This document shows, piece after piece, positions 7,968-40,909 of a stretch of 64,000 bases of DNA. How positions within the stretch are numbered: position 1 is the stretch's first letter; each line of letters opens with the position of its first letter. The notes under the pieces are model-generated. The model worked only from the letters and a program-made list of their open reading frames with translations. It did no database searches and was not told the origin of the DNA. A program made the translations under genes and the position numbers. The stretch spans positions 23,418 through 87,417 of the forward strand of contig VGOM01000005.1 of NCBI GenBank assembly GCA_016875915.1. The letters run 5' to 3'. The stretch is from Chloroflexota bacterium. GTDB taxonomy: Bacteria; Chloroflexota; Dehalococcoidia; UBA2247; RBG-13-53-26.

Positions 7968-10361
7968 ATGGGAATCATGGCCCAAGCCACAAGCCAAGTA
8001 GCGACATCTGATGTCCCGCATGCCTCTGAACGGTTCAGCCGCATCAAGAAGGAGCTGCATTGTACGCCGGTGGCCCTGTGCCCGGAGCGGGCTGTCCTGA
8101 TCACCGACTACTTCAAGCACCACGACAATCCCAGGGAGCCCACCATCGTCCGCAGGGCGAAGGCATTGCGCCACCTCCTGAGGCAGAAATCAGTCAAGAT
8201 CTATCCCGATGAACTGGTCGTGGGCAATATGGGCACCCAGAGGGTCTCGGCCATCATCCAACCCGAGCTGGCCGGCCTGTTTATGAGCACCGAGCTGCTG
8301 TGGATAGACAGGCGGAAGACCAACCCGCTGCGCACGGCCTGGCGGGACCGAATCAAGCTCCTGCTGGGGGTGTACCCATACTGGCTGCGGCGCAACATGC
8401 CCTTCAGTGCATTCTCGCCGCACTACAGGCAGTTCCTGCGCTTCGCGCTGGAGCAACTGGACTCCACCTACTACCTCATCAACGAGGCCGGGGGCATCGG
8501 GCATTTCCTGCCCAACTACGAGAAGATGCTCAGGCTGGGGGTGAAGGGCTACCTGGCCACCATGGAGGGCAGGCAGGGCGACCTGTACGAGGCGGCGCGG
8601 ATCGCCTGTGAAGGGCTGGTTGGCTTCGCCCGGCGCTGCGCGGAGGAGGCGGAACGCCTAGCGGCCGAGGAGAAGGATCTGACCAGGGCAGGAGAGCTGA
8701 AGGAGATTGCCCGCATCTGCCACAAAGTGCCGGAGCATCCGGCGGAGACACTCCACGAGGCCCTGCAGTCGCTGTGGCTGACCCACCTGGCGGTGAACCT
8801 GGAGGGGCTTAACTCGGCCATCTCCTTCGGCAGGATAGACCAGTACCTCTACCCATACTACAGGAGCGACCTGGAGAAGGGCAGGATCACCGCGGACGAG
8901 GTTCGGGAGCTGCTGCTCTGCTTCTCAGCCAAGTGCACGGAGCACGTCTTCCTGCTCTCGGAGAAGGTCAGCCAGTACCACGGCGGCTACCTGGTGGTCC
9001 AAGCGGCGACGGTGGGGGGCATGGACCGCAACGGACAGGACGCCGTGAACGACCTGACCTACCTCTTCCTGGACGTCATGGAGCAAGCGGGCCTGAGGGA
9101 CCCGAACTACCAGGCGCGGGTCCATGCCGGCAGTACGGAGAAGTACCTCAGGCGGGTGGCAGAGGTGGCCAAAAAGGGCAATGCAGTCCCGGCCCTGTTC
9201 GGTGACGAAGCCGCCATAGCCTCCCTCGAAGCGCACGGCTACCCCGCGGAGGAAGCCCGCGACTACGGGGTGGTAGGCTGTGTGGAGCTGGCCTTGCCCG
9301 GGAAGAGCTTCTTCTCCACCGATGCCGGCCTGTTCAACTTGCCGCTGTGCCTGGAGTTGGCGCTGAACAGCGGCAAGCGCTTCGGGAGGCGGCAGAGGAT
9401 AGGCGTGGCCACGCAGGATCCGGAGACATTCACCTCAATTGAGGAGGTGATGGATGCGTTCCGCCGTCACGTAGAGCACATGGCGGACCGTATGGTGGCC
9501 GACCTGCAGGTGATCGAGAAAGGCAACCGGGACTATCATCCCACGCCTCTCTCATCCATGCTGGTGGACGGCTGCCCGGAGACGGGCAGGGATGTGACAG
9601 CCGGGGGAGCACGGTACAACTCCAGCGGAGTCCAGGGCGTGGGTGTGGCCGATGTGGCCGACTCGCTGGCCGCTCTCGATCAGGTGATCTTCCAGGGCCG
9701 CAAATACACCATAGCCGAGGTACTGAAGGCTCTGCGGGCCAACTTCAAGGGCGCTCTGGAAATCCAGGCCGCGCTGTCGCAGTCCCCGAAGTACGGCAAT
9801 GACCACCAGTCGCCGGACCGTTACGCCGATGCTGTGGCACGGATCTTCCATGATGCCCTGGCCGGGCACGTCAACATGCGGGGAGGCCGGTACGTGCCGG
9901 GCTTCTACTCCGTGACCTGCCATATCGCCTTCGGCAAGAAGGTCGGTGCTTTGCCCAGCGGCAGGAAGGCCGGCGAACCCTTTGCAGCCAGCCTGGGTCC
10001 GGCCAATGGGCGGGACCGACTGGGGCCCACAGCCCTGCTCAACTCGGTGGCCCATGTTGACTCCAGACTGGCACCCAACGGCTATGCCCTCAACCTCCGC
10101 TTTGACCCGGCCACCCTGGGTGGTGATGGAGGGGTGGACATACTGATGGGCTTGGTCAAGGGCTTCTTCGGCTCCGGGGGGATGGAGATGCAGCTGAACG
10201 TGCTCGACCCCAAGATGCTTGAGGATGCCCGCCTTCACCCCGGCAAGTACCCCGAACTGGTGGTGCGCGTATCGGGCTATTGCGCCTACTTCGACGACCT
10301 CCCCGATGATGCCAAGCTGGAGATCATCTCCCGCACCCGCCTGGGGTTCGGGGTGACCTAG
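7968..10361 (+). CDS. Glycyl radical enzyme, PFL2/glycerol-dehydratase-like clade (C-x-E active site)
   Basis: C-terminal glycyl-radical motif VVRVSGYCAYF; internal GCVELA (Cys-x-Glu) as in glycerol dehydratase/CutC/HypD/HPAD; ~800 aa; no activase adjacent. Confidence 0.85.
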   Translation: MGIMAQATSQVATSDVPHASERFSRIKKELHCTPVALCPERAVLITDYFKHHDNPREPTIVRRAKALRHLLRQKSVKIYPDELVVGNMGTQRVSAIIQPELAGLFMSTELLWIDRRKTNPLRTAWRDRIKLLLGVYPYWLRRNMPFSAFSPHYRQFLRFALEQLDSTYYLINEAGGIGHFLPNYEKMLRLGVKGYLATMEGRQGDLYEAARIACEGLVGFARRCAEEAERLAAEEKDLTRAGELKEIARICHKVPEHPAETLHEALQSLWLTHLAVNLEGLNSAISFGRIDQYLYPYYRSDLEKGRITADEVRELLLCFSAKCTEHVFLLSEKVSQYHGGYLVVQAATVGGMDRNGQDAVNDLTYLFLDVMEQAGLRDPNYQARVHAGSTEKYLRRVAEVAKKGNAVPALFGDEAAIASLEAHGYPAEEARDYGVVGCVELALPGKSFFSTDAGLFNLPLCLELALNSGKRFGRRQRIGVATQDPETFTSIEEVMDAFRRHVEHMADRMVADLQVIEKGNRDYHPTPLSSMLVDGCPETGRDVTAGGARYNSSGVQGVGVADVADSLAALDQVIFQGRKYTIAEVLKALRANFKGALEIQAALSQSPKYGNDHQSPDRYADAVARIFHDALAGHVNMRGGRYVPGFYSVTCHIAFGKKVGALPSGRKAGEPFAASLGPANGRDRLGPTALLNSVAHVDSRLAPNGYALNLRFDPATLGGDGGVDILMGLVKGFFGSGGMEMQLNVLDPKMLEDARLHPGKYPELVVRVSGYCAYFDDLPDDAKLEIISRTRLGFGVT

Positions 10362-10644
10362 GCTTGCTTCGCTTCAGCCCCACCATCGCCATCTGGCAGG
10401 CCAATGGCTTGAAGGTGGCAGTGACACAACGTGCCCGTCGATGGGCAGCTGACTCTGCAGAGGTAGCCACGCTGGCCTCCAGGCGAGAGCGCGGCCAGTC
10501 CGTGATCACGCCTGGGGGTGAATGGTACAGAGGTTCAGCAAACGGGGATTGGCCCCGATGGCGGGGCAGGGCTCCCCAAGGTGGGGGCTCGCAAGGCGCT
10601 GCATCTGGCGAGCCGCCTCTGCGTTCCCAGGCCACGACTACGGT

Positions 10645-12309
10645 CTATGCAGGCTGTACCCCTGTCATGGTGGCCACATGACGGCCGGCAATCATGCCAA
10701 AGACCATAGCCGGCCCTATCGTTGATCCAGGACCGGGGTACGTACGCCCCATGACTGAGGCTGCGTTGTTGCCTGCCGCGTAGAGGCCACGGATGACCGA
10801 GCCATCCTTGCGCAGCACACGCGCGTGCTGGTCAATGACAAGCCCGCCCATTGTGCCCAAATCGCCCGGCCAGACCTTCAATGCATAGAAAGGCGGTTTC
10901 TCGATTGGTCCGAGGTTGGGATTCGGTTTGACCCTCGGGTCGGAGTAGAAGCGATCATAGGCGCTGTCCCCACGATGGAAGTCCTCGTCCCTTCCGTTTC
11001 TGGCGAACTGAGAGAACCTCTTGGCGGTGGCCATCAGACCAGCCTCGTCGATTCCCATCTTGCGGGCGAGTTCCGGGAGCGAGTCAGCCTTGGTGATGAT
11101 GCCATTCCTATACGCTGACTTCGGTGTAATACGCGGCATCATGTCGGTCCCGATTATGTAGTTGTTGCGATGCCGTGAATCGAGGATGAGATATGCCGGA
11201 ATCGCTGGCACGACCCTGTTGCGCTGATACTGTTGGTGGCCACAGTCAACGTAGGACTGTGACTCGTTCATGAATCGCTGGCCGGAGCTGTCAACTATCA
11301 TGCTGTACGGCATGGAGCGCTCGAAAAGCAATGTCCAAGGACCGCTCTTCAACCTGAGTGTCGGCATCCACCAGGCTTCATCCATCATGGCGACGGCGGC
11401 TCCGACGTCAATTCCGGCCTGGATACCACCCCCCGTATTGCCCGGGGCACCCACCGTCCACTCGGTGGTGATGGGGTGTTCCTGGTACTGCTGCCGCATT
11501 GCATCATTGTGTTCAAAGCCACCCGCAGCGAGTATGACACCACGCCTGGCCAGGATACGTATGTCCTTGCCATCTCTCTTGGCGGTGACACCTACAACGG
11601 CATCGCCTTCCGCTATGAGGCCCACCAGAGGGGTGTTGATCCAGACCGAGACGGAGCGGTCGAGTAGGATCTTGAGCAACTGGCCAACAAGCGCCCCACC
11701 CATGGAAATGCGCCGCTTGCCCATCATTCTCCACAGGACTGTGCGCCTAAGGACAACATCCATCGTGGTGCTGAACCCACTCCAGGTGCGCAGGAATAGG
11801 GGCAAGCTGCGAGCTTCAACGGCTCGCAGTGGCACGGGCATAGCCTGCACCCTGTCTTTCCACTCCTTCCCAAGCAGACGAGGGTCAAACAGCTCGCTCT
11901 CCAGGCAGCGACCCTGGGCGCAACCGCCGGCACGCTCAGGGTAGTAGTCCGGATAGCCTCGGGCAAAGACAGCCTTGAACCCCAGACTTTCGAGCCATTT
12001 CAGCATGTCAGGACCGGTCTTGAGATAGGTCTCACGAAGCTCTTTGGAGCTAGCCGGGCCCTTCTCCGGGATGACCTCATTCATATAGGCCAGCGCTGCC
12101 TCATAGGAGTCATCAACTCCGCACGCCTTCATGAGGTGGCTGTTCGGAATCCAGAAACCACCCCCCGACTTGGCGGTCGAACCCCCGACGCTGTCCATAC
12201 TCTCGAGGACAATCACTTCGCATCCGGCATCACGAGCAGCTACCGCCGCCGTCAGGCCCCCAGCGCCTGATCCTACAACGACGACGTCTATTGCATGTTC
12301 GAATCCCAT
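10645..12309 (-). CDS. FAD-binding dehydrogenase, 3-ketosteroid delta1-dehydrogenase (KstD)/fumarate-reductase flavoprotein-like
   Basis: DVVVVGSGAGGLTAA Rossmann motif, C-terminal GLYAAGNNAASVMGRTYPGPGSTIGPAMVFG typical of FAD_binding_2 KstD-like enzymes; GGAGG SD before ATG 12309. Confidence 0.7.
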   Translation of the reverse strand: MGFEHAIDVVVVGSGAGGLTAAVAARDAGCEVIVLESMDSVGGSTAKSGGGFWIPNSHLMKACGVDDSYEAALAYMNEVIPEKGPASSKELRETYLKTGPDMLKWLESLGFKAVFARGYPDYYPERAGGCAQGRCLESELFDPRLLGKEWKDRVQAMPVPLRAVEARSLPLFLRTWSGFSTTMDVVLRRTVLWRMMGKRRISMGGALVGQLLKILLDRSVSVWINTPLVGLIAEGDAVVGVTAKRDGKDIRILARRGVILAAGGFEHNDAMRQQYQEHPITTEWTVGAPGNTGGGIQAGIDVGAAVAMMDEAWWMPTLRLKSGPWTLLFERSMPYSMIVDSSGQRFMNESQSYVDCGHQQYQRNRVVPAIPAYLILDSRHRNNYIIGTDMMPRITPKSAYRNGIITKADSLPELARKMGIDEAGLMATAKRFSQFARNGRDEDFHRGDSAYDRFYSDPRVKPNPNLGPIEKPPFYALKVWPGDLGTMGGLVIDQHARVLRKDGSVIRGLYAAGNNAASVMGRTYPGPGSTIGPAMVFGMIAGRHVATMTGVQPA

Positions 12310-12570
12310 CTTGTGGCCTCCCGTCTCCCTCCGTCCAGCACTCGCAGCCTGACAATAGAACATGATCCCCATATTGCCAGTCGTTCGTCAACTTCCTGGT
12401 GTTGGTGCCCTGCCCCACCGGTTGTGGCTCTTCTCGGGGTGCAGTCGTCGGAATGAGGGACAACTCGAAGCTCGGGGGTCCTGACATTCTCCAGCCCTGC
12501 TTCCCTGACACTCCTGCACCTGCCGCCATGATTGTGGACCCCACACGGGGATGCTATACTTCCAGGCCTG

Positions 12571-13479
12571 ATGAAGCCGGTCATAGAAGTTGAGCACCTG
12601 AGGAAGGGCTATGCCTCCGTGGTCGCCGTTGACGACGTGTCTTTCAGTGTGGCAGATGGGGAGATATTCGGTCTGCTCGGGCCGAACGGGGCGGGGAAGA
12701 CCACCACGGTGGAGTGCCTTCAGGGCCTGCGCCGGGCCGATGGTGGCCACCTCCAGGTTCTGGGGATTGATCCGCAGTCACAGGCCGGCCAACTCCGCGC
12801 CTTGATGGGCTCGCAGTTGCAGGAATCGGCGCTGCCCGACCGGATCAAGGTCTGGGAGGCCCTGGACCTGTTTGCCTCGTTCAGCCCGCATAGCGCCGAC
12901 TGGCCCACACTGATGGAGCAGTGGGGCCTGTCAGCCAAGCGGAATGCTTCCTTCTCCAGTCTCTCCGGCGGCCAGCGGCAGCGCCTGTTCATCGCCCTGG
13001 CTCTGGTCAACAGGCCCAAGGTGGTCTTCCTCGACGAGATGACTGCCGGACTGGACCCGGGAGCGCGGCGGGGGGCATGGGAGCTCATCCGGGGCATCCG
13101 TGATGGAGGGGCCACGGTGGTGCTGGTGACGCATTTCATGGACGAGGCGGAGAACCTGTGCGACCGCCTGGCCATTGTGGACCATGGCAGGATCGCAGCA
13201 CTGGGCACGCCGCGTGATCTGATCACCGAGTACGCCGGTGAAGTGCGGGTGACCTTCAGCGCCGGGGAGGCCGATCTCTCCTGGCTGGCCGAGATACCGC
13301 ACGTGCGCCAGGTGAAGCGGCGCGGCCCGGTGGTGGAAGTAGCCGGGGACGGCCCGATGGCGGTGCTGGTGGCCGGCGGCCTGGTGCAGCACGGAATGAC
13401 GCCGGCCGATCTGCGCACGGAGCAGTCTACCCTGGAGGACGTGTTCCTGAAACTGACCGGCAGCGGCATGGGGAACTGA
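12571..13479 (+). CDS. ABC transporter ATP-binding protein (ABC-2 type)
   Basis: Walker A GPNGAGKTT, signature LSGGQRQR, Walker B VVFLDE; start chosen at MKPVIEVEHL. Confidence 0.85.
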   Translation: MKPVIEVEHLRKGYASVVAVDDVSFSVADGEIFGLLGPNGAGKTTTVECLQGLRRADGGHLQVLGIDPQSQAGQLRALMGSQLQESALPDRIKVWEALDLFASFSPHSADWPTLMEQWGLSAKRNASFSSLSGGQRQRLFIALALVNRPKVVFLDEMTAGLDPGARRGAWELIRGIRDGGATVVLVTHFMDEAENLCDRLAIVDHGRIAALGTPRDLITEYAGEVRVTFSAGEADLSWLAEIPHVRQVKRRGPVVEVAGDGPMAVLVAGGLVQHGMTPADLRTEQSTLEDVFLKLTGSGMGN

Positions 13480-13488
13480 GGGAGACCG

Positions 13489-14229
13489 GTGCGCACACTG
13501 CTCAAGCTGACCTGGGTGGAACTGAAGCTCTTCGTACGGGAGCCGGTGACCATGTTCTTCACTCTCGTCTTTCCGATCATCGTTCTGTTTGTGATGGGCG
13601 GCGTCTTCGCGAATACGCCCGATCCGGATGCCTGGCGGGGGGTGGGGGCGATGAACTTCTATACCCCGGCGTACATCGGGCTGGTCATCGCCTCCATAGG
13701 GTTGGTCGGTCTACCGGTGCACCTGTCCGGCTACCGCGAGCGCGGGGTGCTGCGGCGGCTGCGGGCGTCGCCGATCCATGTGCTGAGCATCTTCAGCTCG
13801 CAGATCCTGGTCAGTTTCGTGATCGCCGTCGTGGGGGCCATCGTTATCACCGCAGTCGCCATGCCGGTGTATGACGTGGCGGCTCCGGAGGACCTCGCCC
13901 TGCTGCTGGCGGCGTTTGTGATCAGCGTGCTGACCTTCGCGTCCATCGGGATCCTGCTGGGGTCAGTGCTGCCCACAACCAGGGCGGCGCAGGGCGTCGG
14001 ACTGGTGCTGTTCTTCATCATGTTCATGATCTCGGGCGGGGGCCCGCCGCCTGAAGTCATGAACGAGCCGATGCGGAGACTGGCGGACCTGACACCGCTG
14101 AAGTATGTCATCATCATGCTTCAGGACCCGTGGCTGGGTTTCTCCTGGAACATGGCCAACTTCGGGATCGTGGCGGGGTTCCTGGTGGTGCCGGGACTGC
14201 TCTCCGTGCGGTTCTTCCGCTGGGAGTAG
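13489..14229 (+). CDS. ABC-2 family transporter permease
   Basis: Six predicted TM helices, ABC-2 permease-like; immediately follows ATPase gene; GTG start. Confidence 0.75.
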   Translation: MRTLLKLTWVELKLFVREPVTMFFTLVFPIIVLFVMGGVFANTPDPDAWRGVGAMNFYTPAYIGLVIASIGLVGLPVHLSGYRERGVLRRLRASPIHVLSIFSSQILVSFVIAVVGAIVITAVAMPVYDVAAPEDLALLLAAFVISVLTFASIGILLGSVLPTTRAAQGVGLVLFFIMFMISGGGPPPEVMNEPMRRLADLTPLKYVIIMLQDPWLGFSWNMANFGIVAGFLVVPGLLSVRFFRWE

Positions 14230-14273
14230 GTGGGCTCATGCAAGTCAGTCCTTGATCTGACGAACCGGCGTCA

Positions 14274-15440
14274 TCAGCCGACCGCGCCCATCCGCCGCAG
14301 TTCGCTGATGTGGCTTTCGGCGTAGCCCATCTCGCGCAGAATCTCGTCGGTGTGCTGTCCAAAACCGGTGGCCCAGTTCCTCATCTCCACAGGGGAATCA
14401 CTGAGCCTGTGCATCGAGCCGATCTGTTTGAGGCGGCCCGCCACGGGATGGTCGGATTCCAGGATCATCCGGCGCGCGATCAACTGGGGGTCGAATTCCA
14501 CCTCATCGATGCCGAGGACCGGAGCGAAGCAGGTGTCAGCATGCATGAGCAGCGCGGTCCACTCGTCCCGCGTTCCGGTCCCGAACTTCCCGGCGAAGAA
14601 CTCGAACATCTCGTCCCGCTTCCTGCCCTCGTCGAACTGATGGGGGATGAACTGCTCGCAGTCCAGGAGCCGGCACAGATTGGCGAAGAACTTGGGCTCG
14701 AATGTGGCGATGGTGACGTGCTTCCCGTCCTTCGTCTCGTAGACGTTGTACCAGGGGTATTTGCCGTTCCAGATGGTTTCGCCCCGCTTGGGGACTGTTC
14801 CCCGATTGTAGAGGTAAGGATTGGTCTGCATCGAGGTCACTTCCGTTATGGCATCGGTGATGGAGACATCCAGGAACCGGCCCTGGCCCGTCCGTTCCCG
14901 CGCCATGAGCGCCGCCAGGATGCCCACTCCGGCAGACAGGCCGCCGCACCAGTCGGCGATGACCGACCCGGGTATGGACGGCTTCCCGCCCTTCGGTCCG
15001 GTCAGGTCGAGAAAACCGCTGATGGCCAGGTAGTTCAATTCATGCCCCACTATGTCCCGATAGGGCCCGTCCTGCCCGTAGCCGGACAGGGATGCGTAGA
15101 TGATCCGGGGGTTGACCGCCTTGATGGTCTCGTAGTCAATGCCAAGGCGCTTGACCACGCCGGGGCGGAATCCCTCCATGACCACATCGGCGCTACCGGC
15201 CAGATCCTGGTAGACTTTCCTGCCCACTTCCATCTTCAGATTGACGCCGAATGTGCGGCAGTTGCGCAGGCCGGGATAGTCACTGAAGACCATCATGGTC
15301 AGCGCGCCATGGGTCTCCGGGTCAACATCTGAGATCCTGATGACGTCGGCGCCCAGGTCACTGAGCATTTCGGTGCAGAAGGCGCCGGGGCCGGTCCAGC
15401 ACATGTTCATTATCTTGATGCCATCGAGCGCCAGTGCCAT
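14274..15440 (-). CDS. CoA-transferase family III (CaiB/BaiF/BbsF-like)
   Basis: N-terminal IKIMNMCWTGPGAFCTEMLSDLGADVI and central catalytic region typical of family III CoA transferases; AAGGAG SD before ATG 15440. Confidence 0.8.
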   Translation of the reverse strand: MALALDGIKIMNMCWTGPGAFCTEMLSDLGADVIRISDVDPETHGALTMMVFSDYPGLRNCRTFGVNLKMEVGRKVYQDLAGSADVVMEGFRPGVVKRLGIDYETIKAVNPRIIYASLSGYGQDGPYRDIVGHELNYLAISGFLDLTGPKGGKPSIPGSVIADWCGGLSAGVGILAALMARERTGQGRFLDVSITDAITEVTSMQTNPYLYNRGTVPKRGETIWNGKYPWYNVYETKDGKHVTIATFEPKFFANLCRLLDCEQFIPHQFDEGRKRDEMFEFFAGKFGTGTRDEWTALLMHADTCFAPVLGIDEVEFDPQLIARRMILESDHPVAGRLKQIGSMHRLSDSPVEMRNWATGFGQHTDEILREMGYAESHISELRRMGAVG

Positions 15441-15839
15441 TCTTCTTTCGTCAACTCCTTTCGGCATTCGTCGCGGCGGCCGAGACAAGCCGTCTGCGGG
15501 TTCTTCTGCAAACCCATCGACCATTATCCGGTTGTCCCTTCGGATACTCAAGTTGCGGGCTGCGGGGGCGAAACGCGCGGGGCACCCAGATTCCCCCATC
15601 AAGTGCGGCATGACACCTGCAGATCACAGACGCGCTTTGGCAAGGCCATCGGGTTGTGATATTATCCCAGCGGAAGACCCCGCATCCCGGTTTGGCTCCG
15701 TAGTCAGATGGAATACCCCAAGCGCCAGGTCATATCAGCCCCTTAGACTGCACAGAGAGTGTGAACCCAGTCTTGGAGAGCAGCTCGACGAATCCGTTTG
15801 GCGACCATTTGCCCCAGAACGGAAGCAAGGAGGAAGGAA

Positions 15840-16232
15840 ATGCCTGTCTTTGAGAGTACAGAGAAGATGTACGATGTGCTGGGGACCCTGTTCAATGTGC
15901 TGGCCTCAGACCCGGTGGTCGGTCCGAAGTACCGGGAGTCGAACATCGTCATCAAGTTCACCATAACCGACCCCGACGGGTTCATCTGGTTGGACAGGGA
16001 CGCGAAGGTGATCTGCGGCCCGGCGGACCTGAAGCCGACGATAGAGATGACCCTGAGCGGCGACACCTGCCACCAGTTCTGGCTGCAGTCGATCTCCATG
16101 CCAGTGGCCCTGGCCAAGGGCCGGATCAAGGCAAAGGGGCCACTGCCGAAGGTGATCAAGCTGCTGCCCTTGCTGAAGCCAGCATACGCAGCCTATCCCG
16201 GAATCGCCAAGAAGCACGGTCTCCCCGTCTAG
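15840..16232 (+). CDS. SCP2 sterol-carrier-protein-2 domain protein
   Basis: ~130 aa SCP2-like fold; AAGGAGGAAGG SD before ATG 15840. Confidence 0.6.
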   Translation: MPVFESTEKMYDVLGTLFNVLASDPVVGPKYRESNIVIKFTITDPDGFIWLDRDAKVICGPADLKPTIEMTLSGDTCHQFWLQSISMPVALAKGRIKAKGPLPKVIKLLPLLKPAYAAYPGIAKKHGLPV

Positions 16233-16251
16233 GAACTGCCAGGAGGTTAGC

Positions 16252-16929
16252 ATGGCCAAGGAAGCCAGCATGAAGCAATTCGAGGAAGACAGGAAGGAAG
16301 CGACCAGGATCGCGGCACGGCTGCTGCTCGCATCGGGGACGACTTCGCCCAGAGTCGGAGGCGTCGGCGAGACAACGATACATATCATTGATGACGAGTG
16401 CCAGATCGAGGAGCTGTGCCAGGCCGTGGAGAGGATGGCCGAGGAGAACAAGCGTTGGGGGTTCTTCAAGAGGGACGCGGTGATGCTGCGGGATGCGGAT
16501 GCGGTGCTGATAGTGACCTCGCTGCGCTGTCTGTCCGATCCGGGCGACTTCAACTGCAATTTGTGCGGGAAGCTGACCTGTGAATACAAGAGGCAGGCCG
16601 ATATGCTGCCGAATGAGCCGGGGATCGCCTTCCCGGGCCCGCTGTGCATCTTCAGGGCCAACAACGTGGGCTACGCCATCGACAGCATGGTGGCCCTGGC
16701 CAGGAATCTGGGCATTGACTACGGCGTGTACTGGTCGGCGGGAGCGGCGGCGATGAGAATGAGGATCGTGCCCAAGAGCACAGGCTTCGCCCTGGCGGTG
16801 GCCATATCGGCCACGGAGAAGAGCCCCTTCCGGGATATCCCCAAGAAGTACGCTGAGATCAATGAGGCCACGATGAACGATCGGATCATCAAGAGGCTGT
16901 GGCCCCAGTTCCGCTCGATATACAGCTAG
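16252..16929 (+). CDS. Cys-motif ferredoxin-like protein, DUF2148-like (paralog 1)
   Basis: CNLCGKLTC (C-x2-C-x4-C) motif and PGPLCIF...GYAIDSM region; AGGAGG SD; paralogous to next gene. Confidence 0.4.
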   Translation: MAKEASMKQFEEDRKEATRIAARLLLASGTTSPRVGGVGETTIHIIDDECQIEELCQAVERMAEENKRWGFFKRDAVMLRDADAVLIVTSLRCLSDPGDFNCNLCGKLTCEYKRQADMLPNEPGIAFPGPLCIFRANNVGYAIDSMVALARNLGIDYGVYWSAGAAAMRMRIVPKSTGFALAVAISATEKSPFRDIPKKYAEINEATMNDRIIKRLWPQFRSIYS

Positions 16930-16955
16930 GGCAGTACGGAGAAGGAGTGAGGACG

Positions 16956-17612
16956 ATGGCGATACGGGAGTCAGACGAGATGCTGCAGAGCGGGCTGGAC
17001 AGGGCCGTTGACCTCATGGCTGTCGCCGCCCACAACAGCTTCCGCTTCGGGGGGGTGGATACGGTGAAGTTGATCTGCGCCGGGAAAGAGGAGATCGTGA
17101 ACATCGCGGAGTTCTGCTACTCCATGGGCGACATGTCCCCCCTGGCCGCCCGGGACGGCAGGTTCGCCATGGAACTGGTGAAGGAACCGTGCGCCCTGCT
17201 GATAATGGGGGATAAGAGGAAGTCCGATTTCAACTATGACTGCGGCGCGTGCGGCTATAGGACGTGCCGCGAGATGAACAAGGCAGAGTGCGTTGAGGCG
17301 CTGACCGGGAACGGTCCGAGCTGCCAGTTCAAGAACATGAATGTGAACATAGCCGCCGACGCCGCCGCGGCCATGGCCTGGAGGCTGGGGCTGCATTGCA
17401 GGGTTTACAGTACGCTGGGCATGGCAGCCTTCGCACTGAAGGTGATCGACGACGTGGATTTCGCCGTCAGCGTATGCGTCAGCGTGGCCAGGAGAGACCC
17501 TTTCTTCGACAGGCATCAGTTCTGGACTGACGAATACTGGGACGAGATATTCAGGAAGGAATTCCCCACTTACACCCGAGGGTTCATCGGGGCCGTCGAG
17601 GACGAGGGCTAG
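16956..17612 (+). CDS. Cys-motif ferredoxin-like protein, DUF2148-like (paralog 2)
   Basis: DCGACGYRTC motif, alignable with upstream paralog; GGAGAAGGAG SD before ATG 16956. Confidence 0.4.
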   Translation: MAIRESDEMLQSGLDRAVDLMAVAAHNSFRFGGVDTVKLICAGKEEIVNIAEFCYSMGDMSPLAARDGRFAMELVKEPCALLIMGDKRKSDFNYDCGACGYRTCREMNKAECVEALTGNGPSCQFKNMNVNIAADAAAAMAWRLGLHCRVYSTLGMAAFALKVIDDVDFAVSVCVSVARRDPFFDRHQFWTDEYWDEIFRKEFPTYTRGFIGAVEDEG

Positions 17613-17627
17613 ACGGGGGCGGCATAC

Positions 17628-19238
17628 ATGAGCAAGGCCCATCTGAATCAGGTTATCGCGTCGCACCTGGCGGAGATCAAGGCAGAGGAAGACCCGGGCA
17701 GGGTGATCTACATCTTCGAGAAGGGCGACCTCGGCGAGGACGCGGTCACCTACGAGGCCCTCTATGCCAACTCGAACAAGATAGCGCGATTCCTTCTGGA
17801 CCGCGGCATTGGCAAGGGCGATACATACGCCGTGTTCATGAGAAACCATCCGGAGTTCGTGTACTCCCTGCTGGCCGGGCCGACCATAGGAGCGGTGATG
17901 GTGCCCATAGACCCGCGGTCGAGGGGCGACCGGCTGAGGTTTCTGCTCCGGGACTGCGGGGCCAAGGCGGTGGTGGTTTCGGGCGAGTGCCTGGGGCAGC
18001 TTGAGGAGGTGGTCAAGGATGTGCCTTACCTGAAGCTGATCTCCGTTGCCCACAGGCCGGAACAGGGTATCCCGGTGACCGGGAAGCACCACGTGTTGAA
18101 CGAAGTCCTGGAGAAGACCTCGTGGAACGCCGTGGAGCAGCAGATAATGGACGTCCGCCATCCGATGCAGATCATCTATACCTCGGGGACAACAGGGGAC
18201 CCCAAGGGCGTGGCCATACGGAACAACAGGACGGGACTGTTCAACATCCTGACCAAGATCGTCTGGAAGTACGACAACAGCGACGTCCTGTACAACGGGC
18301 TGTCGCTGACACACGGCAATGCTCAGACGGTGACCCTGTTCCCGGCTTTCGCCATGGGGATCAAGGCGGTGTTCAGCGCCCGGTTTACCAAGACCAGGAT
18401 ATGGGGCATATGTCGGAAGTACGGTTGCACCTCGTTCTCTCTGCTGGGCGGGATGATGGCGGGGATATACAACGAACCGGAGAGGCCGGATGACGGGGAC
18501 AACCCGGTGCGGGTGGTGATCAGCGCAGGTACACCGCCGCCGCTGTGGGAGGGATTTGAGAAGCGGTTCAATGTGAAGATCCTGGAGTGGTACGGCTCCG
18601 TGGAGGGGGGGTTCGCCTACAAACCGATCGGAGATGGCCCGATAGGGTCATTCGGCAAGCCGGTGCCCGGTGTGATGGAGATGAAGGTGGTGGATGACGA
18701 GGACAGGGAGGTACCCGCGGGGCAGACCGGCGAGCTGATCTCCAGGCTGCTCCGGGGGGAGACCAAGGTGGACTACCTGGGGAAGCCGGAGGAGTCCAAG
18801 GAGAAGACCAGGGGCGGCTGGCTGAGGACGGGGGATATGGTCCATAAGGACAAGGAGGGGTGGTATTTCTTCGACTACAGGAAGGGGACGGAACTGCGCA
18901 GAGCGGGCGACTTCATTCAACCGGACTACATCGAGACGGTGATTGGAAAGCACCAGGATGTGAGCGAGGTCTGCGTCTACGGGATTCCGTCGGCCTCGGG
19001 AGCGCCGGGGGAGAGCGATCTGGTGGCGGCGGTGTCCCCGCTGGAGGGACACGCCATAGACCCCAGATCGGTCTTCGACCTGTGCAAGAAGGAGATGGCA
19101 GCCAACTACATCCCGACCTACCTTCACGTCCTGGAGGAACTGCCCAAGACGCTGACGGAGAAGCCACTGACCCGCGAGCTGAAGCAGTTGGCCGAACAGG
19201 GGGTGGGCAGAATGTACAGGTTCGAGGACTACAGGTAG
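17628..19238 (+). CDS. AMP-dependent acyl-CoA synthetase/ligase
   Basis: AMP-binding signature IIYTSGTTGDPKG, C-terminal GWLRTGD...K motif. Confidence 0.85.
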   Translation: MSKAHLNQVIASHLAEIKAEEDPGRVIYIFEKGDLGEDAVTYEALYANSNKIARFLLDRGIGKGDTYAVFMRNHPEFVYSLLAGPTIGAVMVPIDPRSRGDRLRFLLRDCGAKAVVVSGECLGQLEEVVKDVPYLKLISVAHRPEQGIPVTGKHHVLNEVLEKTSWNAVEQQIMDVRHPMQIIYTSGTTGDPKGVAIRNNRTGLFNILTKIVWKYDNSDVLYNGLSLTHGNAQTVTLFPAFAMGIKAVFSARFTKTRIWGICRKYGCTSFSLLGGMMAGIYNEPERPDDGDNPVRVVISAGTPPPLWEGFEKRFNVKILEWYGSVEGGFAYKPIGDGPIGSFGKPVPGVMEMKVVDDEDREVPAGQTGELISRLLRGETKVDYLGKPEESKEKTRGGWLRTGDMVHKDKEGWYFFDYRKGTELRRAGDFIQPDYIETVIGKHQDVSEVCVYGIPSASGAPGESDLVAAVSPLEGHAIDPRSVFDLCKKEMAANYIPTYLHVLEELPKTLTEKPLTRELKQLAEQGVGRMYRFEDYR

Positions 19239-19277
19239 ACCCCTGTGAGGGATAGCGCCGATACGGAGGTGTGGTAG

Positions 19278-20513
19278 ATGCCATACACCGAACTGAATCT
19301 CGATCTGACTGAGGAACACAGGCTCATCAAGAGGGAGGTGCATGATTTCGCCGTCGAGGTGCTCAGGCCGGCATCCCTCGAGCTGGACAAGATGTCGCCA
19401 GAGGACGTGACCAGAAAGGGCTCGCCCTACTGGCAGTGCATGGCCCAGGCATACCGGAACAACTATCACACCGTGCTCATTTCCGACGAGTACGGGGGGC
19501 TGGGGCTGGACCCGCTGGGGGTGCACATCTTCTGGGAGGAGCTGTCCTACGGCAGCGTGGGGTTTGCCGTTTCGCTGGGGTGCAGCTGCTTCTCTTCCTT
19601 CTACGCCACGCTGCTCTGCGACGACTACTTGATAGAGAAGTTCGTGTTGCCATTCGTCAACTGCAAAGATGCCAGCGTGATGAGCTGCTGGGGGATCACC
19701 GAGCCGGCCCACGGTTCGGACAACCTGATGACGGGAACCCCCTTCTTCCGCGACCCCTGCGCCTGTCAGGAGGTGAGAGCGGTGAAGAAGCGGGGGAAGT
19801 GGGTGCTCAACGGGCAGAAGTCGGCGTGGGTCTCCAATGGCCCCATTGCATCCGATGCGGCTCTGTTCGTGAACCTCGATCCGGGCATGGGTTTCGCCGG
19901 GGGGGGCATAGCCCTGGTGGACCTCAACCAGAAGGGCATTTCCAGGGGCAAGCCGCTGAACAAGATGGGACAGCGGGAGCTGCCACAGGGGGAGATCTTC
20001 TTCGATGATGCGGTGTGCCCCGACGAACACATGATCATCGACCCCGAGAGCTACGAGGCGATCACGGAACTTACCCTGGGACACGCCAATGCCACCATGG
20101 GGGCGTACTTCACGGGCGTGGCCCAGGCGGCCTACGACATGGCCATGGAGTACAGCCGGGACCGGGTGCAGGGCGGGAAACCCCTTTGCCAGCATCAAAT
20201 GGTGCAGAGCAGGCTGTTCGACATGTTCATAGCCATCGAGACGGCCAGAGCCTTCTCGCGAAGCGCCATGGTGTTCAACATGAACACCACGCCGCCCCTG
20301 GTGCAGTACTCCATTGCTTCGAAGGTGTACTGCACGGAGGCGGCCTTCAAGGTGACCAGCGAAGCGGTGCAGCTGTTCGGAGGGCACGGCCTGACCAAGG
20401 ATGCCCCTGTGGAGAAGCTGTTCAGAGACGCCAGGGCGGGGATGATCGAGGACGGATCGAACGACTCGCTATCGCTGGCCGCCGGAGAGATGCTGCTGAG
20501 GGAGGTACAGTAG
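19278..20513 (+). CDS. Acyl-CoA dehydrogenase
   Basis: ACAD three-domain architecture (411 aa), GGAGG SD; stop overlaps thiolase start. Confidence 0.8.
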   Translation: MPYTELNLDLTEEHRLIKREVHDFAVEVLRPASLELDKMSPEDVTRKGSPYWQCMAQAYRNNYHTVLISDEYGGLGLDPLGVHIFWEELSYGSVGFAVSLGCSCFSSFYATLLCDDYLIEKFVLPFVNCKDASVMSCWGITEPAHGSDNLMTGTPFFRDPCACQEVRAVKKRGKWVLNGQKSAWVSNGPIASDAALFVNLDPGMGFAGGGIALVDLNQKGISRGKPLNKMGQRELPQGEIFFDDAVCPDEHMIIDPESYEAITELTLGHANATMGAYFTGVAQAAYDMAMEYSRDRVQGGKPLCQHQMVQSRLFDMFIAIETARAFSRSAMVFNMNTTPPLVQYSIASKVYCTEAAFKVTSEAVQLFGGHGLTKDAPVEKLFRDARAGMIEDGSNDSLSLAAGEMLLREVQ

Positions 20514-21760
20514 CCATAGACAAGGCGTACATCGCTGGCGTGGGGATGATACGCTTCGGCAAGTATGCCGACAAGACGGTGCGTTCAATGGCGGAGGAGG
20601 CCATCCGGCTGGTGCTGCAGGACGCCGGATTGACGGCCGGCGACCTGCAGGCGGTGTTCTTCTCCAACACCTTCTGGGGCATGTTCTCCAATCAGCACTC
20701 CATCCGGGGGCAGGTCATCCTGCGGGGGATGAAGATCGACAAGATACCGGTGACCAATGTGGAGAACGCCTGCGCGGGAGGGGCGACGGCGCTGCACCTG
20801 GCCTACGCCAGCATACGGGCGGGCATGTTTGACGTGGCCATGGCCCTGGGCTCGGAGAAGATCAGCCATCCGGACAAGAACCTCTCGCTGGGAGCGTATG
20901 CCTCCTGCATGGATGTGGAGAACTTCCTGCAGCACATCAACATGATCATGGAAGTGAGCAAGACCTTCAAGGTGAAGATACCGGAGGACCAGACGGCTCC
21001 GGGGGAGGGCCGGAGCATCTTCATGGACGCCTACGCCACTGCGGCGCGGTGGCATATGGACCGGTTCGGGTCGACCCAGGATCAACTGGCGGTAGTCTGC
21101 TCCAAGAACCACTGGCACGGGTCTCTGAACCCGCTTTCTCAGTATCAGAATCCCATGACGGTCGAGGAGATACTGGCGGACAAGGCCATCGCCTATCCGC
21201 TGACCCGGGCGATGTGCGCGCCGGTGGGGGACGGGGCGGCGGCAGCCATAGTCTGCTCGGAGCGATTCCTCAAGAGGCTGAGCAGTCCCCGGCCGGTGAG
21301 GATACTGGCGTCGGTGCTGGGTCAGGGGGCAGACCGGGGACTGGACGACACCGACATCGGCGAGAGGCTGTCCAGGCAGGCCTATGAGATCGCCGGGCTG
21401 GGGCCGAAGGACATCGACACCGCAGAGTTGCATGACGCAACTGCTTTCGGGGAGCTGCATCAGACCGAGGCCATGGGATTCTGCCCGCTGGGGGAGGGCG
21501 GCCCCTACGCCTTGACTGGGGCGACGAAGCTGGGCGGGGCCAAGCCGATCAACACCAGCGGGGGGCTGGAATGCAGAGGGCATCCCATAGGGGCTTCGGG
21601 GCTGGCCCAGATCTATGAACTGGTGACGCAGCTCCGGGGTGAGGCCGGGGTCCGCCAGGTGGACGGGGCACGGATAGCGCTGGCGGAGAACGGGGGCGGC
21701 AATATCGGAGTGGAAGAGGCCGCCATGTGTATCCACGTGCTCGAAAAGAGCGGCCGGTAG
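20510..21760 (+). CDS. SCPx-type (lipid-transfer-protein, Ltp-like) thiolase
   Basis: Thiolase fold with NVENACAGGATAL active-site Cys and C-terminal GGG...NTSGGL; GTG start overlapping ACAD stop (GTGA... coupling). Confidence 0.75.
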   Translation, partial: VAIDKAYIAGVGMIRFGKYADKTVRSMAEEAIRLVLQDAGLTAGDLQAVFFSNTFWGMFSNQHSIRGQVILRGMKIDKIPVTNVENACAGGATALHLAYASIRAGMFDVAMALGSEKISHPDKNLSLGAYASCMDVENFLQHINMIMEVSKTFKVKIPEDQTAPGEGRSIFMDAYATAARWHMDRFGSTQDQLAVVCSKNHWHGSLNPLSQYQNPMTVEEILADKAIAYPLTRAMCAPVGDGAAAAIVCSERFLKRLSSPRPVRILASVLGQGADRGLDDTDIGERLSRQAYEIAGLGPKDIDTAELHDATAFGELHQTEAMGFCPLGEGGPYALTGATKLGGAKPINTSGGLECRGHPIGASGLAQIYELVTQLRGEAGVRQVDGARIALAENGGGNIGVEEAAMCIHVLEKSGR

Positions 21761-21867
21761 CACGCCGGAACGGGAGCCGCTGCCGGCACCCGGGCTCTGC
21801 GCCCACCGGGCAGAGAGGCTGAGGGGATGCCCTCCACGGAGATCTACCCAGTTCACCAATCCGGAGG

Positions 21868-22689
21868 TTGAGGGAATTGGCCAAGTACGACCTCACGGGG
21901 AGAACCGTGCTGATCACGGGCGCCTCAAGCGGCATAGGCAGGGAGCTGTCGAGGTGCTTTGCGGCCGAGGGCAGCAATCTGGTGCTGGGATGTCATCCAT
22001 CCGAGAAGGAGTCCCTGGAAGGGTTGATCGCTGAGCTGGCAGGCAGCCACGGGGTGAGGGTGTCAGGCTTGGCCATCGACCTTGCAGACAGCAGAGGACC
22101 GGAGGACTTCTACCATTCGGTCAGGCGGACTGCAGGCAGGATAGACGTGCTGGTCAACAATGCCGGAGTCCTGCACTACGGGTCTTTCGCGGACATACCT
22201 CTGGAGGATCACGAGCTGCTGGTCAAGCTGAATGTATTGGCATACTTGAAACTGATGCGGCTCTTCCTGGCGGACATGGTCAAGGCCGGGGAGGGCAGGA
22301 TACTCAACGTGGTGTCCGCGGCAGCCTTCCAGCCCACGGTGCACCATGCCACTTACGGGGCTTCCAAGGCATTCATGCAGAGTCTGAGCGAAGCGGTTGA
22401 CCAAGAGCTGAGAGGGACTGGTGTCAGGGTGTTCACCTTCAACCCTTCCTACACCAGGACGCCCCTCCTCAGCCGGGGAGGGTTTCCGGTCAAGATCTGG
22501 TGGTACAGGATCAGCGGTCTGAGCGATCCGGCCGACATGGCGCGACAGGCAGTGAGGGTCTTCAAGCAGGGAAAGCCGGTGTTCATCCCGGGGCTGAGGA
22601 ACTGGCTGGTGCATTCGATTCTGATCAGGCTGATGCCCAGAAGCCTGCTGAACGCCCTGGGCCGATGGGTATTGCGGGCCGAGGGCTGA
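21868..22689 (+). CDS. Short-chain dehydrogenase/reductase (SDR)
   Basis: TGASSGIG cofactor motif, YGASK catalytic motif; TTG start (alternative TTG at 21877). Confidence 0.8.
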   Translation: MRELAKYDLTGRTVLITGASSGIGRELSRCFAAEGSNLVLGCHPSEKESLEGLIAELAGSHGVRVSGLAIDLADSRGPEDFYHSVRRTAGRIDVLVNNAGVLHYGSFADIPLEDHELLVKLNVLAYLKLMRLFLADMVKAGEGRILNVVSAAAFQPTVHHATYGASKAFMQSLSEAVDQELRGTGVRVFTFNPSYTRTPLLSRGGFPVKIWWYRISGLSDPADMARQAVRVFKQGKPVFIPGLRNWLVHSILIRLMPRSLLNALGRWVLRAEG

Positions 22690-22715
22690 GATGGCCGCCC
22701 GGGTGCCCCCCGTCT

Positions 22716-23516
22716 TCAGCGGGTCTCGCCACGGAGGTCGTCCAGTTTCATGAAGCCGAAAGGCGCAAACTGGGCAGCGTCTGTTTCGGCCACGACGCTG
22801 CCGGGCAGCATGGAGTTGTCGCCCACAGTACGGACAGCGCCGAGGACGCGGACCACCTCGACGTCAGCCCAGGGATCGTGAGGCGAGGATTGCAGCTTCA
22901 GCGTGGCCTCGCCGAACTCCACGAGGCGGTGATTCATCCTGACTATCTCTCTGACTAGGCGTGGGTTGTAGTCGAAACCATTCCCTTGAGGGGCAGGGAA
23001 GTACTTGAAGTTGTAGACCAGTACATCGCTGGGAGACTGGAAACTCTGGGCGATGATGGTCTGGGCCATCTCGTCATTGCACTTGCCGGTGAGCTTGGCC
23101 TTGATCTCCAGGAAGCGCACCCCGTGTCTGGCCGTCCACCCTTCGATGCCCTTCCCTCGGCGGACTAGGTGAATATCGGCCATCTTCTTGGGGTAACCGT
23201 AGATCTCCCGGCCCAAGATGAGAGCGATGTCGTTGGTTACAGGCATGGACAGACAGTAGGAACCCTCCTCGCCGCCGAATTCGGCGCGCAGGAAGAGGGC
23301 GCTCTCCCTATAGGTAACGCCGAAATTGGTGCGGGGGTAGTTGGCCACAAAGACAAACCCGATGGGCAGCGCAGCCGGCTTGAGGGGTGGAGGGAGCAGG
23401 GCGTTCAGCGTCTTGGGCGTGGTCTCGAAGAAGACGGTGAGCATCTCCGCATCATGGAAGTCTCCGGTCTTCCAGGCGCCGGCGGCAAGTTCCTGTGCTG
23501 ACTTGACGAATCCCAT
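22716..23516 (-). CDS. Acetoacetate decarboxylase (ADC) family protein (possible hydratase-aldolase)
   Basis: ADC-fold hallmarks (ALFLRAEF, YGYPKK, beta-cone length ~266 aa); GGAGG SD before ATG 23516. Confidence 0.6.
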   Translation of the reverse strand: MGFVKSAQELAAGAWKTGDFHDAEMLTVFFETTPKTLNALLPPPLKPAALPIGFVFVANYPRTNFGVTYRESALFLRAEFGGEEGSYCLSMPVTNDIALILGREIYGYPKKMADIHLVRRGKGIEGWTARHGVRFLEIKAKLTGKCNDEMAQTIIAQSFQSPSDVLVYNFKYFPAPQGNGFDYNPRLVREIVRMNHRLVEFGEATLKLQSSPHDPWADVEVVRVLGAVRTVGDNSMLPGSVVAETDAAQFAPFGFMKLDDLRGETR

Positions 23517-34821: not shown

Positions 34822-34875
34822 GGCTTCTCCTCGCTCGGTCATTTCACGCAATGGTGAGCCGTGCCTTCTCTCCGG

Positions 34876-36195: not shown

Positions 36196-36200
36196 ACTGC

Positions 36201-40070: not shown

Positions 40071-40116
40071 TCCGGGTCCAGTTTCCGGGGATCATGGCCA
40101 TCATCGAGGTTGAGCT

Positions 40117-40902: not shown

Positions 40903-40909
40903 AGGGCGA

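Follow-up and report, generated by a model that had tools for sequence, protein, structure and literature searches.

A conserved SCP2-DUF2148 operon with beta-oxidation-like gene content in Dehalococcoidia and other strictly anaerobic bacteria

The 64-kb stretch of contig VGOM01000005.1 analyzed here (referred to as the window) comes from a Chloroflexota bacterium of the class Dehalococcoidia and harbors a single, tight operon of seven plus-strand genes (15840-22689). The operon encodes, in order, a predicted SCP2-fold lipid carrier, two DUF2148 proteins, an AMP-forming acyl-CoA ligase, an acyl-CoA dehydrogenase (ACAD), an SCP2/Ltp-type thiolase, and a short-chain dehydrogenase/reductase (SDR). 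It is uncharacterized in everything searched, lacks a curated model, and occurs nearly unchanged in many strictly anaerobic bacteria. The type of pathway, which is beta-oxidation-like, is known; what is new is the conserved SCP2-DUF2148 operon with its uncharacterized pair of putative Fe-S enzymes. What the analysis shows is the gene content, the folds and catalytic motifs of the products, the conservation in other genomes, and the variants found there. Its best reading, held with a little less than even confidence, is that of a self-contained unit, portable between strictly anaerobic lineages, that would process the CoA ester of a poorly soluble acid.

The gene map is based on Pfam and NCBIfam scans together with independent gene calls on identical public contigs. 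Such identical stretches are found on public metagenome contigs (JGI samples 3300020083 and 3300020084; Logan assemblies). Every gene listed in a preliminary description of this DNA was recovered at the place given for it. The operon genes and the promoter candidate in front of them are as follows.

15637..15665, plus strand: candidate sigma-70-like promoter (TTGGCA-17-TATTAT with an extended -10 TG; 10/12 consensus matches)
15840-16232, plus strand: predicted SCP2-fold lipid carrier, 130 aa, first gene of the operon (structure model and orthologs)
16252-16929, plus strand: DUF2148 subunit A, 225 aa (PF09918, 71.9 bits)
16956-17612, plus strand: DUF2148 subunit B, 218 aa (PF09918, 71.3 bits)
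17628-19238, plus strand: acyl-CoA synthetase (AMP-binding ligase), 536 aa (PF00501, PF13193)
19278-20513, plus strand: ACAD, 411 aa (Pfam ACAD N, M, and C domains)
20516-21760, plus strand: SCP2/Ltp-type thiolase, with the coordinates counted from a probable ATA start; public call from ATG 20546 (Pfam Thiolase_C_1 and Thiolase_N)
21877-22689, plus strand: classical SDR, 270 aa, last gene of the operon here (PF00106, 153 bits)

Consecutive operon genes are separated by 19, 26, 15, 39, 2, and 116 nt, the longest gap preceding the SDR gene. The site at 15637-15665 is the best promoter-like site of the region and lies 5' of the seven genes, a candidate by virtue of its match to the consensus.

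Conservation of the operon was assessed by scanning a collection with one genome per species using an alignment of DUF2148 subunit A, which yielded 150 matches. The best 80 loci were kept and compared by tblastn with 14 window proteins, neighboring open reading frames were clustered, and host lineages were assigned by record title. The first six operon genes lie in the same order within 7 kb in 60 of the 61 loci that hold all six, and since this order recurs in other genomes the arrangement is far beyond chance. Median identities to the window proteins are, in operon order, 72% for SCP2, 75% for DUF2148 subunit A, 71% for subunit B, 71% for the ligase, 67% for the ACAD, 76% for the thiolase, and 53% for the SDR. 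Among 411 protein clusters related to subunit A, the best 120 show 72-95% identity, and the closest carriers of the operon (92-95% identity) are Dehalococcoidia/Chloroflexota. Many further carriers belong to Desulfobacterota (Syntrophaceae, Smithella, Desulfomonilia, Desulfarculus, Desulfobacteraceae, and Desulfosudis oleivorans), with others in Spirochaetota/Leptospirales, Bacteriovoracaceae, and Bacillota/Syntrophomonadaceae. The entire run from SCP2 to SDR is present in Desulfarculus baarsii DSM 2075 and in a Dehalococcoidia metagenome-assembled genome (MAG), and none of the other neighbors seen in the window occurs at these two operon loci. In D. baarsii DSM 2075 (CP002085), locus L008 covers record positions 3526947-3547624, and the genes from TetR to SDR occupy 8960-16323 of it. 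D. baarsii DSM 2075 and Desulfatirhabdium butyrativorans are culturable carriers.

The operon is extended in other genomes by two recurrent genes, neither of which has a homolog anywhere within the window. A TetR regulator gene lies upstream in 41 loci, and its best weak NCBIfam matches include the fatty-acid regulator FadR and KstR. Most genomes add this repressor, and we read the module as an inducible one. An extended SDR of the Epimerase/3Beta_HSD type follows or precedes the SDR in 34 loci; its weak matches are to OleD and to thioester-reductase domains (33-53 bits, all far under cut-off). The remaining flanks differ by lineage, and the flanking families scanned in other phyla are signaling or housekeeping genes only. 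NCBIfam has no match for the SCP2-like or DUF2148 proteins and matches the other cluster proteins only far below cut-off. The full-text literature searched contained no mention of DUF2148, PF09918, or COG4739, nothing on SCP2-thiolase-ACAD in Dehalococcoidia, on a sterol carrier protein in Desulfarculus, or on a propanoyl-CoA C-acyltransferase in sulfate reducers, and only eukaryotic or unrelated papers on the combination of racemase, SCP2, and isoprenoid.

The 130-aa protein encoded by the first gene is sub-threshold on Pfam SCP2 (E=0.019), and the profile of its orthologs retrieves Yarrowia SCP2 as a weak match in the PDB (E=0.041). Among the orthologs, some exceed the PF02036 threshold and carry the NCBI name SCP2 sterol-binding protein. 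The AlphaFold2 model is confident (pLDDT 91.8), and the top 40 Foldseek matches in the PDB are all SCP2-fold proteins (TM 0.55-0.73), among them human SCP2, Yarrowia SCP2, and the SCP-2L domain of MFE-2 (TM 0.65/0.73). The gene is present in 81 loci at 60-95% identity. Judged by this model, the product has the SCP2 fold, which bears out the SCP2-domain assignment of the preliminary description and is the reason for reading the substrate as hydrophobic.

The two DUF2148 proteins exceed the PF09918 gathering cut-off of 25 bits and are paralogous (28% identity, BLASTP 6e-14), with subunit B always adjoining subunit A in the compared loci. The cysteines of subunit A are invariant in the alignment (C102-x2-C105-x4-C110...C132) and constitute a putative [4Fe-4S] site; subunit B has its own CX2CX4C...C motif together with a sub-threshold match to the PF04060 FeS family (20.1 bits). 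The AlphaFold2 model of subunit A is of moderate confidence (pLDDT 74), and Foldseek relates it to the FMN nitroreductase superfamily (E 7e-6 to 5e-4, prob 1.0, TM just 0.45-0.5), with matches to NfsB, the C-domain of FbiB, BluB-like proteins, and IYD. The DUF2148 proteins have no match to Pfam Nitroreductase, and a sequence search of solved structures with DUF2148 returned no match. The DUF2148 family is small (232 representatives in a set of 1.84 billion proteins), and the libraries and papers searched gave no function for it. All subunit-A orthologs fall into one 50% cluster. From these features, the pair (DUF2148ab) is presumed to be a heterodimeric, nitroreductase-like oxidoreductase that probably contains FMN, with one predicted [4Fe-4S] cluster per subunit.

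Two distant variants provide insights into the possible role of the pair. At locus L141 (1723-6557), the order DUF2148a'-DUF2148b'-ligase is the same as in the operon. DUF2148a' is here a 747-aa fusion with Fer4_20 and Pyr_redox_2, a GltD/NfnB-like NAD(P)H module, and is followed by a second DUF2148 protein of 279 aa and a ligase that is 34% identical to the window ligase (1e-84); neither an ACAD nor a thiolase is present at this locus. Upstream of it are a BcrAD_BadFG ATPase fragment and a transposase helix-turn-helix gene. At locus L145 (2-6379), a DUF2148 pair (268 and 277 aa) has a tungsten aldehyde:ferredoxin oxidoreductase on one side and subunits of a pyruvate/2-oxoacid:ferredoxin oxidoreductase (POR) on the other; a cupin and a ThiS-like protein beside the tungsten enzyme and a MIP channel are also encoded there. 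The contexts of single archaeal DUF2148 genes are uninformative. Taken together, the two variants suggest that the older unit consists of a DUF2148 pair and a carboxylic-acid-handling enzyme, with electrons entering via Fe-S centers. DUF2148ab is most likely an auxiliary reductase of the ene-reductase type that acts on a CoA ester.

The ligase, ACAD, thiolase, and SDR belong to well-known families without reaching any specific model. The best NCBIfam matches of the ligase are long-chain or ATP-dependent acyl-CoA ligases (at most 268 bits against cut-offs of 476-722), and it has no PDB relative at E<=1e-40. The window cluster has only one ACAD gene, as does the conserved operon. Its best PDB matches (~1e-43) are short- and medium-chain ACADs, its NCBIfam equivalog scores are at most 137 bits against cut-offs of 470-650, and a Glu occupies the catalytic-base position (IEDG, aligned by eye with YEGT), which points to a single, generic SCAD/MCAD-like enzyme. 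The SDR has the motifs TGxxxGxG, NNAG, and YxxxK, is 41-78% identical in 45 loci, and is presumed to be a 3-hydroxyacyl-CoA dehydrogenase or ketoreductase; it reaches no NCBIfam equivalog and has no solved-structure match at a strict threshold.

The thiolase retains the nucleophile Cys76 in NACAGG and His346 in GHP. With the nucleophilic Cys kept, the enzyme is classed with the thiolases and apart from aldolases of the Ltp2 type. HDAT replaces HDCF in its sequence, and HDCF is likewise replaced in BbsB (HDAF) and in 7yvy. The best PDB match is BbsB (2e-54), closely followed by zebrafish SCP2-thiolase type 1 (2e-53), with alignment over the full length. A conserved N-terminal strand (..AYIAGVGMIRF) is encoded upstream of the called ATG, and public gene calls thus shorten the protein by 10 residues. 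In other phyla, 19 loci have ATG at the homologous start; ATA takes this position in eight Chloroflexota copies (the window at 20516, L010, and L013-L018). In the window this ATA, the probable start of the gene, lies 2 nt past the ACAD stop and 9 nt past GGGAGG, an arrangement that suggests AUA initiation or translational coupling. The two genes had been described as overlapping, which does not hold for the conserved N-terminus, as it begins past the ACAD stop.

The genes that surround the operon in this genome are listed below.

6338-7903, plus strand: CrtI/CrtO-like FAD oxidoreductase (Pfam/NCBIfam)
7968-10361, plus strand: glycyl radical enzyme, GRE (Pfam/NCBIfam)
10645-12372, minus strand: KstD-like FAD enzyme (Pfam/NCBIfam)
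12571-14229, plus strand: ABC-2 exporter (Pfam)
14274-15440, minus strand: CoA_transf_3 family-III protein, divergent from the operon (PF02515, 287.9 bits)
22716-23516, minus strand: acetoacetate-decarboxylase (ADC)-family protein, 266 aa, convergent to the operon (PF06314, 183.8 bits)

Among these neighbors, the family-III gene bears on the nature of the substrate. Its product had been described as a family-III CoA-transferase; the family fold stands (PF02515), while the nearest relatives are alpha-methylacyl-CoA racemases. The best PDB matches are the Mycobacterium tuberculosis racemases Far and MCR (3e-54), with SUGCT close behind (3.5e-50). The protein contains the motifs GHELNY and ADWCGG; compared with Escherichia coli CaiB, it has a His in GHELNY at the position of a Tyr, and a conserved Asp. 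His126 and Asp156 are the catalytic pair of M. tuberculosis MCR. Based on these similarities, the protein is predicted to belong to a racemase-like subgroup, and its gene is regarded as a lineage-specific accessory of the operon. A 2-methyl-branched acyl-CoA of the isoprenoid or steroid side-chain type would fit this racemase-like neighbor, and the SCP2-type thiolase points to such substrates as well. The sole similar copies (53-55%, GHDINY) are found at L018, one of them directly upstream of the SCP2 gene. Dehalococcoidia MAGs have arrays of CoA_transf_3 paralogs beside the operon, with six in a row at L018 (1302-9207) and four at L013 (1724-4169 and 16682-19208); only two of the L018 array copies carry the racemase-type motifs GHDINY/ADFAAG.

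In the proposed working of the operon, the SCP2-fold protein would hold the lipid and the AMP-forming ligase would convert it to the acyl-CoA. In this Chloroflexi lineage, the racemase-like enzyme may set the configuration of a 2-methyl group. The ACAD would introduce a 2,3-double bond, and hydration would fall to an enzyme encoded outside the operon, such as a host crotonase, or give way to chemistry unlike classical beta-oxidation. The SDR would oxidize the 3-hydroxyl, and the SCP2-type thiolase would release acetyl- or propionyl-CoA. DUF2148ab would reduce the CoA ester in an auxiliary step of the ene-reductase type with electrons entering via its Fe-S clusters, comparable with the FMN/FAD/[4Fe-4S] 2,4-dienoyl-CoA reductase or with the enone reductase CLA-ER, which has a nitroreductase fold. 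On this proposal, the operon would be a CoA-dependent chain-shortening module for a bulky, water-insoluble, possibly methyl-branched acid, combined with a new Fe-S reductase, a reading we regard as plausible while falling somewhat short of probable. Both the substrate class (a bulky, possibly 2-methyl-branched isoprenoid- or steroid-type acid) and the catabolic direction are what we infer from this set of functions, and the same holds for the proposals that DUF2148ab contains a flavin, forms a heterodimer, and acts as a reductase.

Several observations weigh against this proposal. No crotonase or MaoC hydratase is encoded in the operon or its conserved neighborhood in the 80 loci, and a complete turn of beta-oxidation therefore needs an outside enzyme or different chemistry. 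The thiolase lacks the cysteine of HDCF. Outside the window, L018 is the one locus at which the racemase-like gene accompanies the operon, so that the branched-chain assignment concerns one lineage. The model of DUF2148 subunit A is of moderate quality, as are its structural matches, and flavin, Fe-S cluster, and heterodimer are predictions. Finally, with an ACAD and a C=C reductase encoded together, one could undo the work of the other if both acted at the same position.

Comparison with known systems places the operon near several of them. AMACR, the SCPx thiolase, and SCP2 form the peroxisomal set that handles pristanoyl-CoA and C27 bile-acid intermediates, and the branched-chain/C27 bile-acid beta-oxidation of peroxisomes (AMACR, ACOX2/3, MFE-2, and SCPx) shares the most conspicuous features: the carrier model superposes on human SCP2 and the SCP-2L domain of MFE-2, the thiolase aligns over its full length with SCP2-thiolase type 1, the dehydrogenase is of the SDR type, and a racemase-like gene is a neighbor here. 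Unlike the peroxisomal proteins, those of the operon are unfused, an ACAD stands in place of the oxidase, a hydratase-2 (MaoC) domain is absent, the HDCF Cys of the thiolase is replaced, two DUF2148 proteins are added, and the hosts are strictly anaerobic bacteria. The FadH 2,4-dienoyl-CoA reductase of E. coli contains FMN, FAD, and [4Fe-4S], and combines an old yellow enzyme-type TIM barrel with an NADPH domain. The role proposed for DUF2148ab, an auxiliary flavin/Fe-S reductase acting on an unsaturated acyl-CoA, resembles that of FadH as a functional analogy only, as the predicted fold of the pair is a nitroreductase-like heterodimer and no sequence similarity was seen. In Lactiplantibacillus plantarum, polyunsaturated fatty acids are saturated as free acids by CLA-HY, CLA-DH, CLA-DC, and CLA-ER (PMC13365329, PMC9241672), and the last three are paralleled by the SDR, the ADC-family protein, and the nitroreductase-like protein of the window. 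That pathway works on free acids and includes the hydratase CLA-HY, whereas the operon substrate would be CoA-activated, the DUF2148 proteins carry Fe-S motifs, and the ADC-like gene is no conserved member of the operon.

The preliminary description had proposed a beta-oxidation-like, CoA-dependent cluster for a hydrophobic substrate, which the SCP2 carrier and the SCP2/Ltp-type thiolase support, and had likened it to steroid side-chain, alicyclic acid, and bbs-type (benzylsuccinate) pathways. The defining components of these are absent, and the cluster cannot be classed as a steroid, bbs, or alicyclic one. Steroid side-chain clusters (FadD17/19 or CasG/I, ChsE, ChsH1-H2, Ltp2, and KstR) share with the operon a ligase, an ACAD, and an Ltp/SCPx-family enzyme, a TetR regulator in other genomes, and a nearby KstD-like gene in this window. 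In contrast with them, the operon has a single ACAD in place of the paired ACADs of the alpha2beta2 ChsE type, lacks MaoC, DUF35, and the Ltp2 aldolase, and has no conserved KstD; the CasI score is 156 against a cut-off of 900. Neither MaoC nor DUF35 was found by Pfam in the called genes between 6.3 and 23.6 kb, in the Pfam tables of L008 and L010, or in the scanned recurrent flanking families. Similarity to the bbs operon consists in the thiolase with its best structural match to BbsB and the shared HDA(F/T), an ACAD and an SDR, and an adjacent family-III gene. Unlike the bbs operon with its BbsAB thiolase and BbsCD SDR pair, the cluster lacks BbsA (Zn-finger/DUF35), the crotonase BbsH, and the BbsEF pair, contains a single SDR and one family-III gene, relies on an AMP-forming ligase for activation, and scores 213 bits against 750 on the BbsB equivalog. 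For alicyclic acids, the ACAD scores 137 and 65.7 against cut-offs of 650 and 575, and crotonase-family ring enzymes are absent from the cluster.

The GRE, KstD-like, ABC exporter, and ADC-like genes are neighbors in this genome only and are placed outside the module. The upstream positions of the first three are as previously claimed, and the combination of SCP2, Ltp thiolase, KstD-like, and CoA-transferase III genes had been called a hallmark of steroid/bile-acid and bbs-type pathways. This combination is not conserved in the 80 operon loci and is a juxtaposition local to this genome: the GRE, KstD-like, CrtI-like, and ABC exporter genes occur within 10 kb of the operon in 0 of 80 loci, the closest relatives (92-95%) included. 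The KstD-like protein scores 698 bits on the 3-ketosteroid-delta-1-dehydrogenase model (cut-off 789). A metagenome scan with it gave 46 loci, in which relatives at 76-89% identity lie in other contexts without the operon; such relatives are common in sediment metagenomes with varied neighbors, and a CrtI-like gene is close by at a single locus (L091), where the arrangement differs. That KstD-like, family-III, and GRE genes adjoin one another in such Chloroflexi contigs is hence no evidence of a shared pathway. The GRE, directly downstream of the CrtI/CrtO-like oxidoreductase gene, falls in the PFL2/dehydratase-like group (637.9 bits on TIGR01774, cut-off 678) and is far under the cut-offs of all characterized equivalogs (HypD, CutC, HpsG, indoleacetate decarboxylase, and hydroxyphenylacetate (HPA) decarboxylase). 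Its Cys loop reads GCVE (9276) and its glycyl motif RVSGY (10266). A radical-SAM GRE activase is absent among the annotated genes of the window. Another contig (L128, 1206-8400) begins within a KstD-like gene of 90% identity, of which it retains the 3' end. Genes for a GRE homolog (distant, 30%), for an SDR, and for ADC-like (39%) and ACAD (37%) proteins come next, and this may represent a different GRE-associated cluster in a related organism.

The assignment of the downstream gene to the acetoacetate-decarboxylase family is correct, as its product exceeds the PF06314 cut-off of 29.8 bits and has the Lys-Lys dyad (YPKK, read by eye). It is not a true ADC equivalog, since it scores 63 on the NCBIfam ADC model against a cut-off of 150; its matches to ADC structures in the PDB are weak, and it is identical to the NCBI entry 'MAG: acetoacetate decarboxylase [Chloroflexi bacterium]'. 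A homolog (52-58%) lies near the operon in 2 of the 80 loci, and three orthologs on long contigs have unrelated gene neighborhoods, so the gene is probably outside the conserved module. Farther away, the operon is flanked by housekeeping genes, with an IMPDH-like gene upstream and rsmI, metG, polyprenyl synthase, moaE, and ftsH downstream. Two modules of HGD-D and BcrAD_BadFG genes are present in the window, one on the minus strand (34000-36456) with an ATPase and one HGD-D protein, and one on the plus strand (37861-41746) with two HGD-D proteins and two ATPases in a layout like that of class-I benzoyl-CoA reductase (BCR). On the minus strand at 45391-47988, a crotonase-family enoyl-CoA hydratase is encoded beside a carboxyltransferase/biotin-carrier protein (HMGL-like, PYC_OADA, and Biotin_lipoyl); no other hydratase is encoded in the window, and this one lies 22 kb from the operon. 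The suggestion that the window is part of an anaerobic lipid/aromatic catabolic island was dropped, as rsmI, metG, ftsH, and other housekeeping genes separate the operon from the BCR/HGD-like modules and G+C is ~60-67% across the 64 kb, with none deviant.

Alternative explanations differ in what they take the operon, or the larger region, to do. According to the preliminary description, the region from ~6.3 to 23.6 kb serves one anaerobic steroid, bile-acid, alicyclic, or bbs-type pathway. Physical adjacency of the genes, the score of the KstD-like protein, the counterparts that SCP2, the SCP2-type thiolase, and the racemase-like protein have in bile-acid side-chain shortening, and the match of the extended SDR of 34 other loci to the 3Beta_HSD family all speak for it. 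We consider it improbable, as the upstream genes accompany the operon in none of the 80 loci, the KstD-like relatives reside elsewhere, the window contains no GRE activase, and paired ACADs, MaoC, DUF35/BbsA, and BbsH are lacking along with adequate CasI and BbsB scores. Less probable still is that the operon is the general straight-chain fatty-acid beta-oxidation set of the organism. Such a set would have a ligase, an ACAD, a 3-hydroxyacyl-CoA-dehydrogenase-type SDR, and a thiolase, as found here, and D. baarsii and Desulfatirhabdium butyrativorans are fatty-acid oxidizers. It would not explain the missing hydratase, a thiolase of the SCP2 type in place of the FadA type, or an SCP2 carrier and two DUF2148 proteins that are foreign to any known general set; moreover, D. 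baarsii has a further ACAD 3 kb upstream of the operon, and the window has its crotonase at a distance, beside a carboxylase.

Two further alternatives concern the direction of the pathway and the function of the DUF2148 pair. In the synthetic direction, a starter acid would be activated, the thiolase would condense, the SDRs would reduce, and the ACAD/DUF2148 proteins would act as enoyl-CoA reductase, giving an unusual long-chain lipid via reverse beta-oxidation or Ole-like chemistry. The set does include a thiolase, two reductase-type SDRs, and an AMP-ligase, the ACAD weakly matches the acryloyl-CoA reductase AcrC and CarC, the extended SDR has its weak matches to OleD and thioester-reductase domains, and the lack of a hydratase is no harder to explain than in the catabolic direction. 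However, OleA, OleB, and an acyl carrier protein are absent, the OleD and thioester-reductase matches are far under cut-off, and SCP2-type thiolases are degradative. Inducible operons for catabolism or efflux typically have a TetR repressor gene immediately in front of them, and the regulator found in other genomes has weak matches to FadR and KstR, which leaves the synthetic direction doubtful. The catabolic operon may also be accepted as such with DUF2148ab in a different role, in which it would serve the ACAD alone as electron acceptor, replacing the electron transfer flavoprotein (ETF) in portable form and passing electrons via its Fe-S clusters to a carrier of the host. The pair and the ACAD co-occur in nearly all loci, etfAB is absent from the window cluster and from the conserved operon neighborhood, a module spreading between phyla would profit from its own redox partner, and the L145 pair is placed among ferredoxin-dependent oxidoreductases. 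This role is possible, if unlikely: at L141 the pair is kept with a ligase and without an ACAD, and is fused to an NAD(P)H-input module that feeds electrons into DUF2148, for which reason a reductase is favored over an ETF substitute. To our knowledge, characterized proteins of the nitroreductase fold are catalytic enzymes and not pure carriers.

If the operon is read as a chain-shortening module with an auxiliary Fe-S reductase, it touches on a process that is poorly understood, namely the breakdown of recalcitrant lipids, such as branched, isoprenoid, and steroid-type acids, by non-denitrifying strict anaerobes in sediments, aquifers, and digesters. The operon is abundant, with ~150 matches in the one-genome-per-species collection and 411 protein clusters in the protein database, and is unusually conserved across lineages labelled as different phyla (70-76% median identity). 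Its presence in culturable strains makes both the substrate and the chemistry of the Fe-S pair directly testable. A bolder possibility, which we advance as speculation, is that the DUF2148 heterodimer together with an acyl-CoA ligase represents a previously unrecognized class of Fe-S flavoenzyme acting on CoA-activated hydrophobic acids, by which anaerobes attack lipids that resist ordinary beta-oxidation. If so, these lipids could be isoprenoid, steroidal, or hopanoid acids, and the pair might use ferredoxin or NAD(P)H to drive a reduction, or its reaction might stand in for the hydratase step that is lacking. In that case, the seven genes would provide the first genetic marker of this process in anoxic sediments and digesters.

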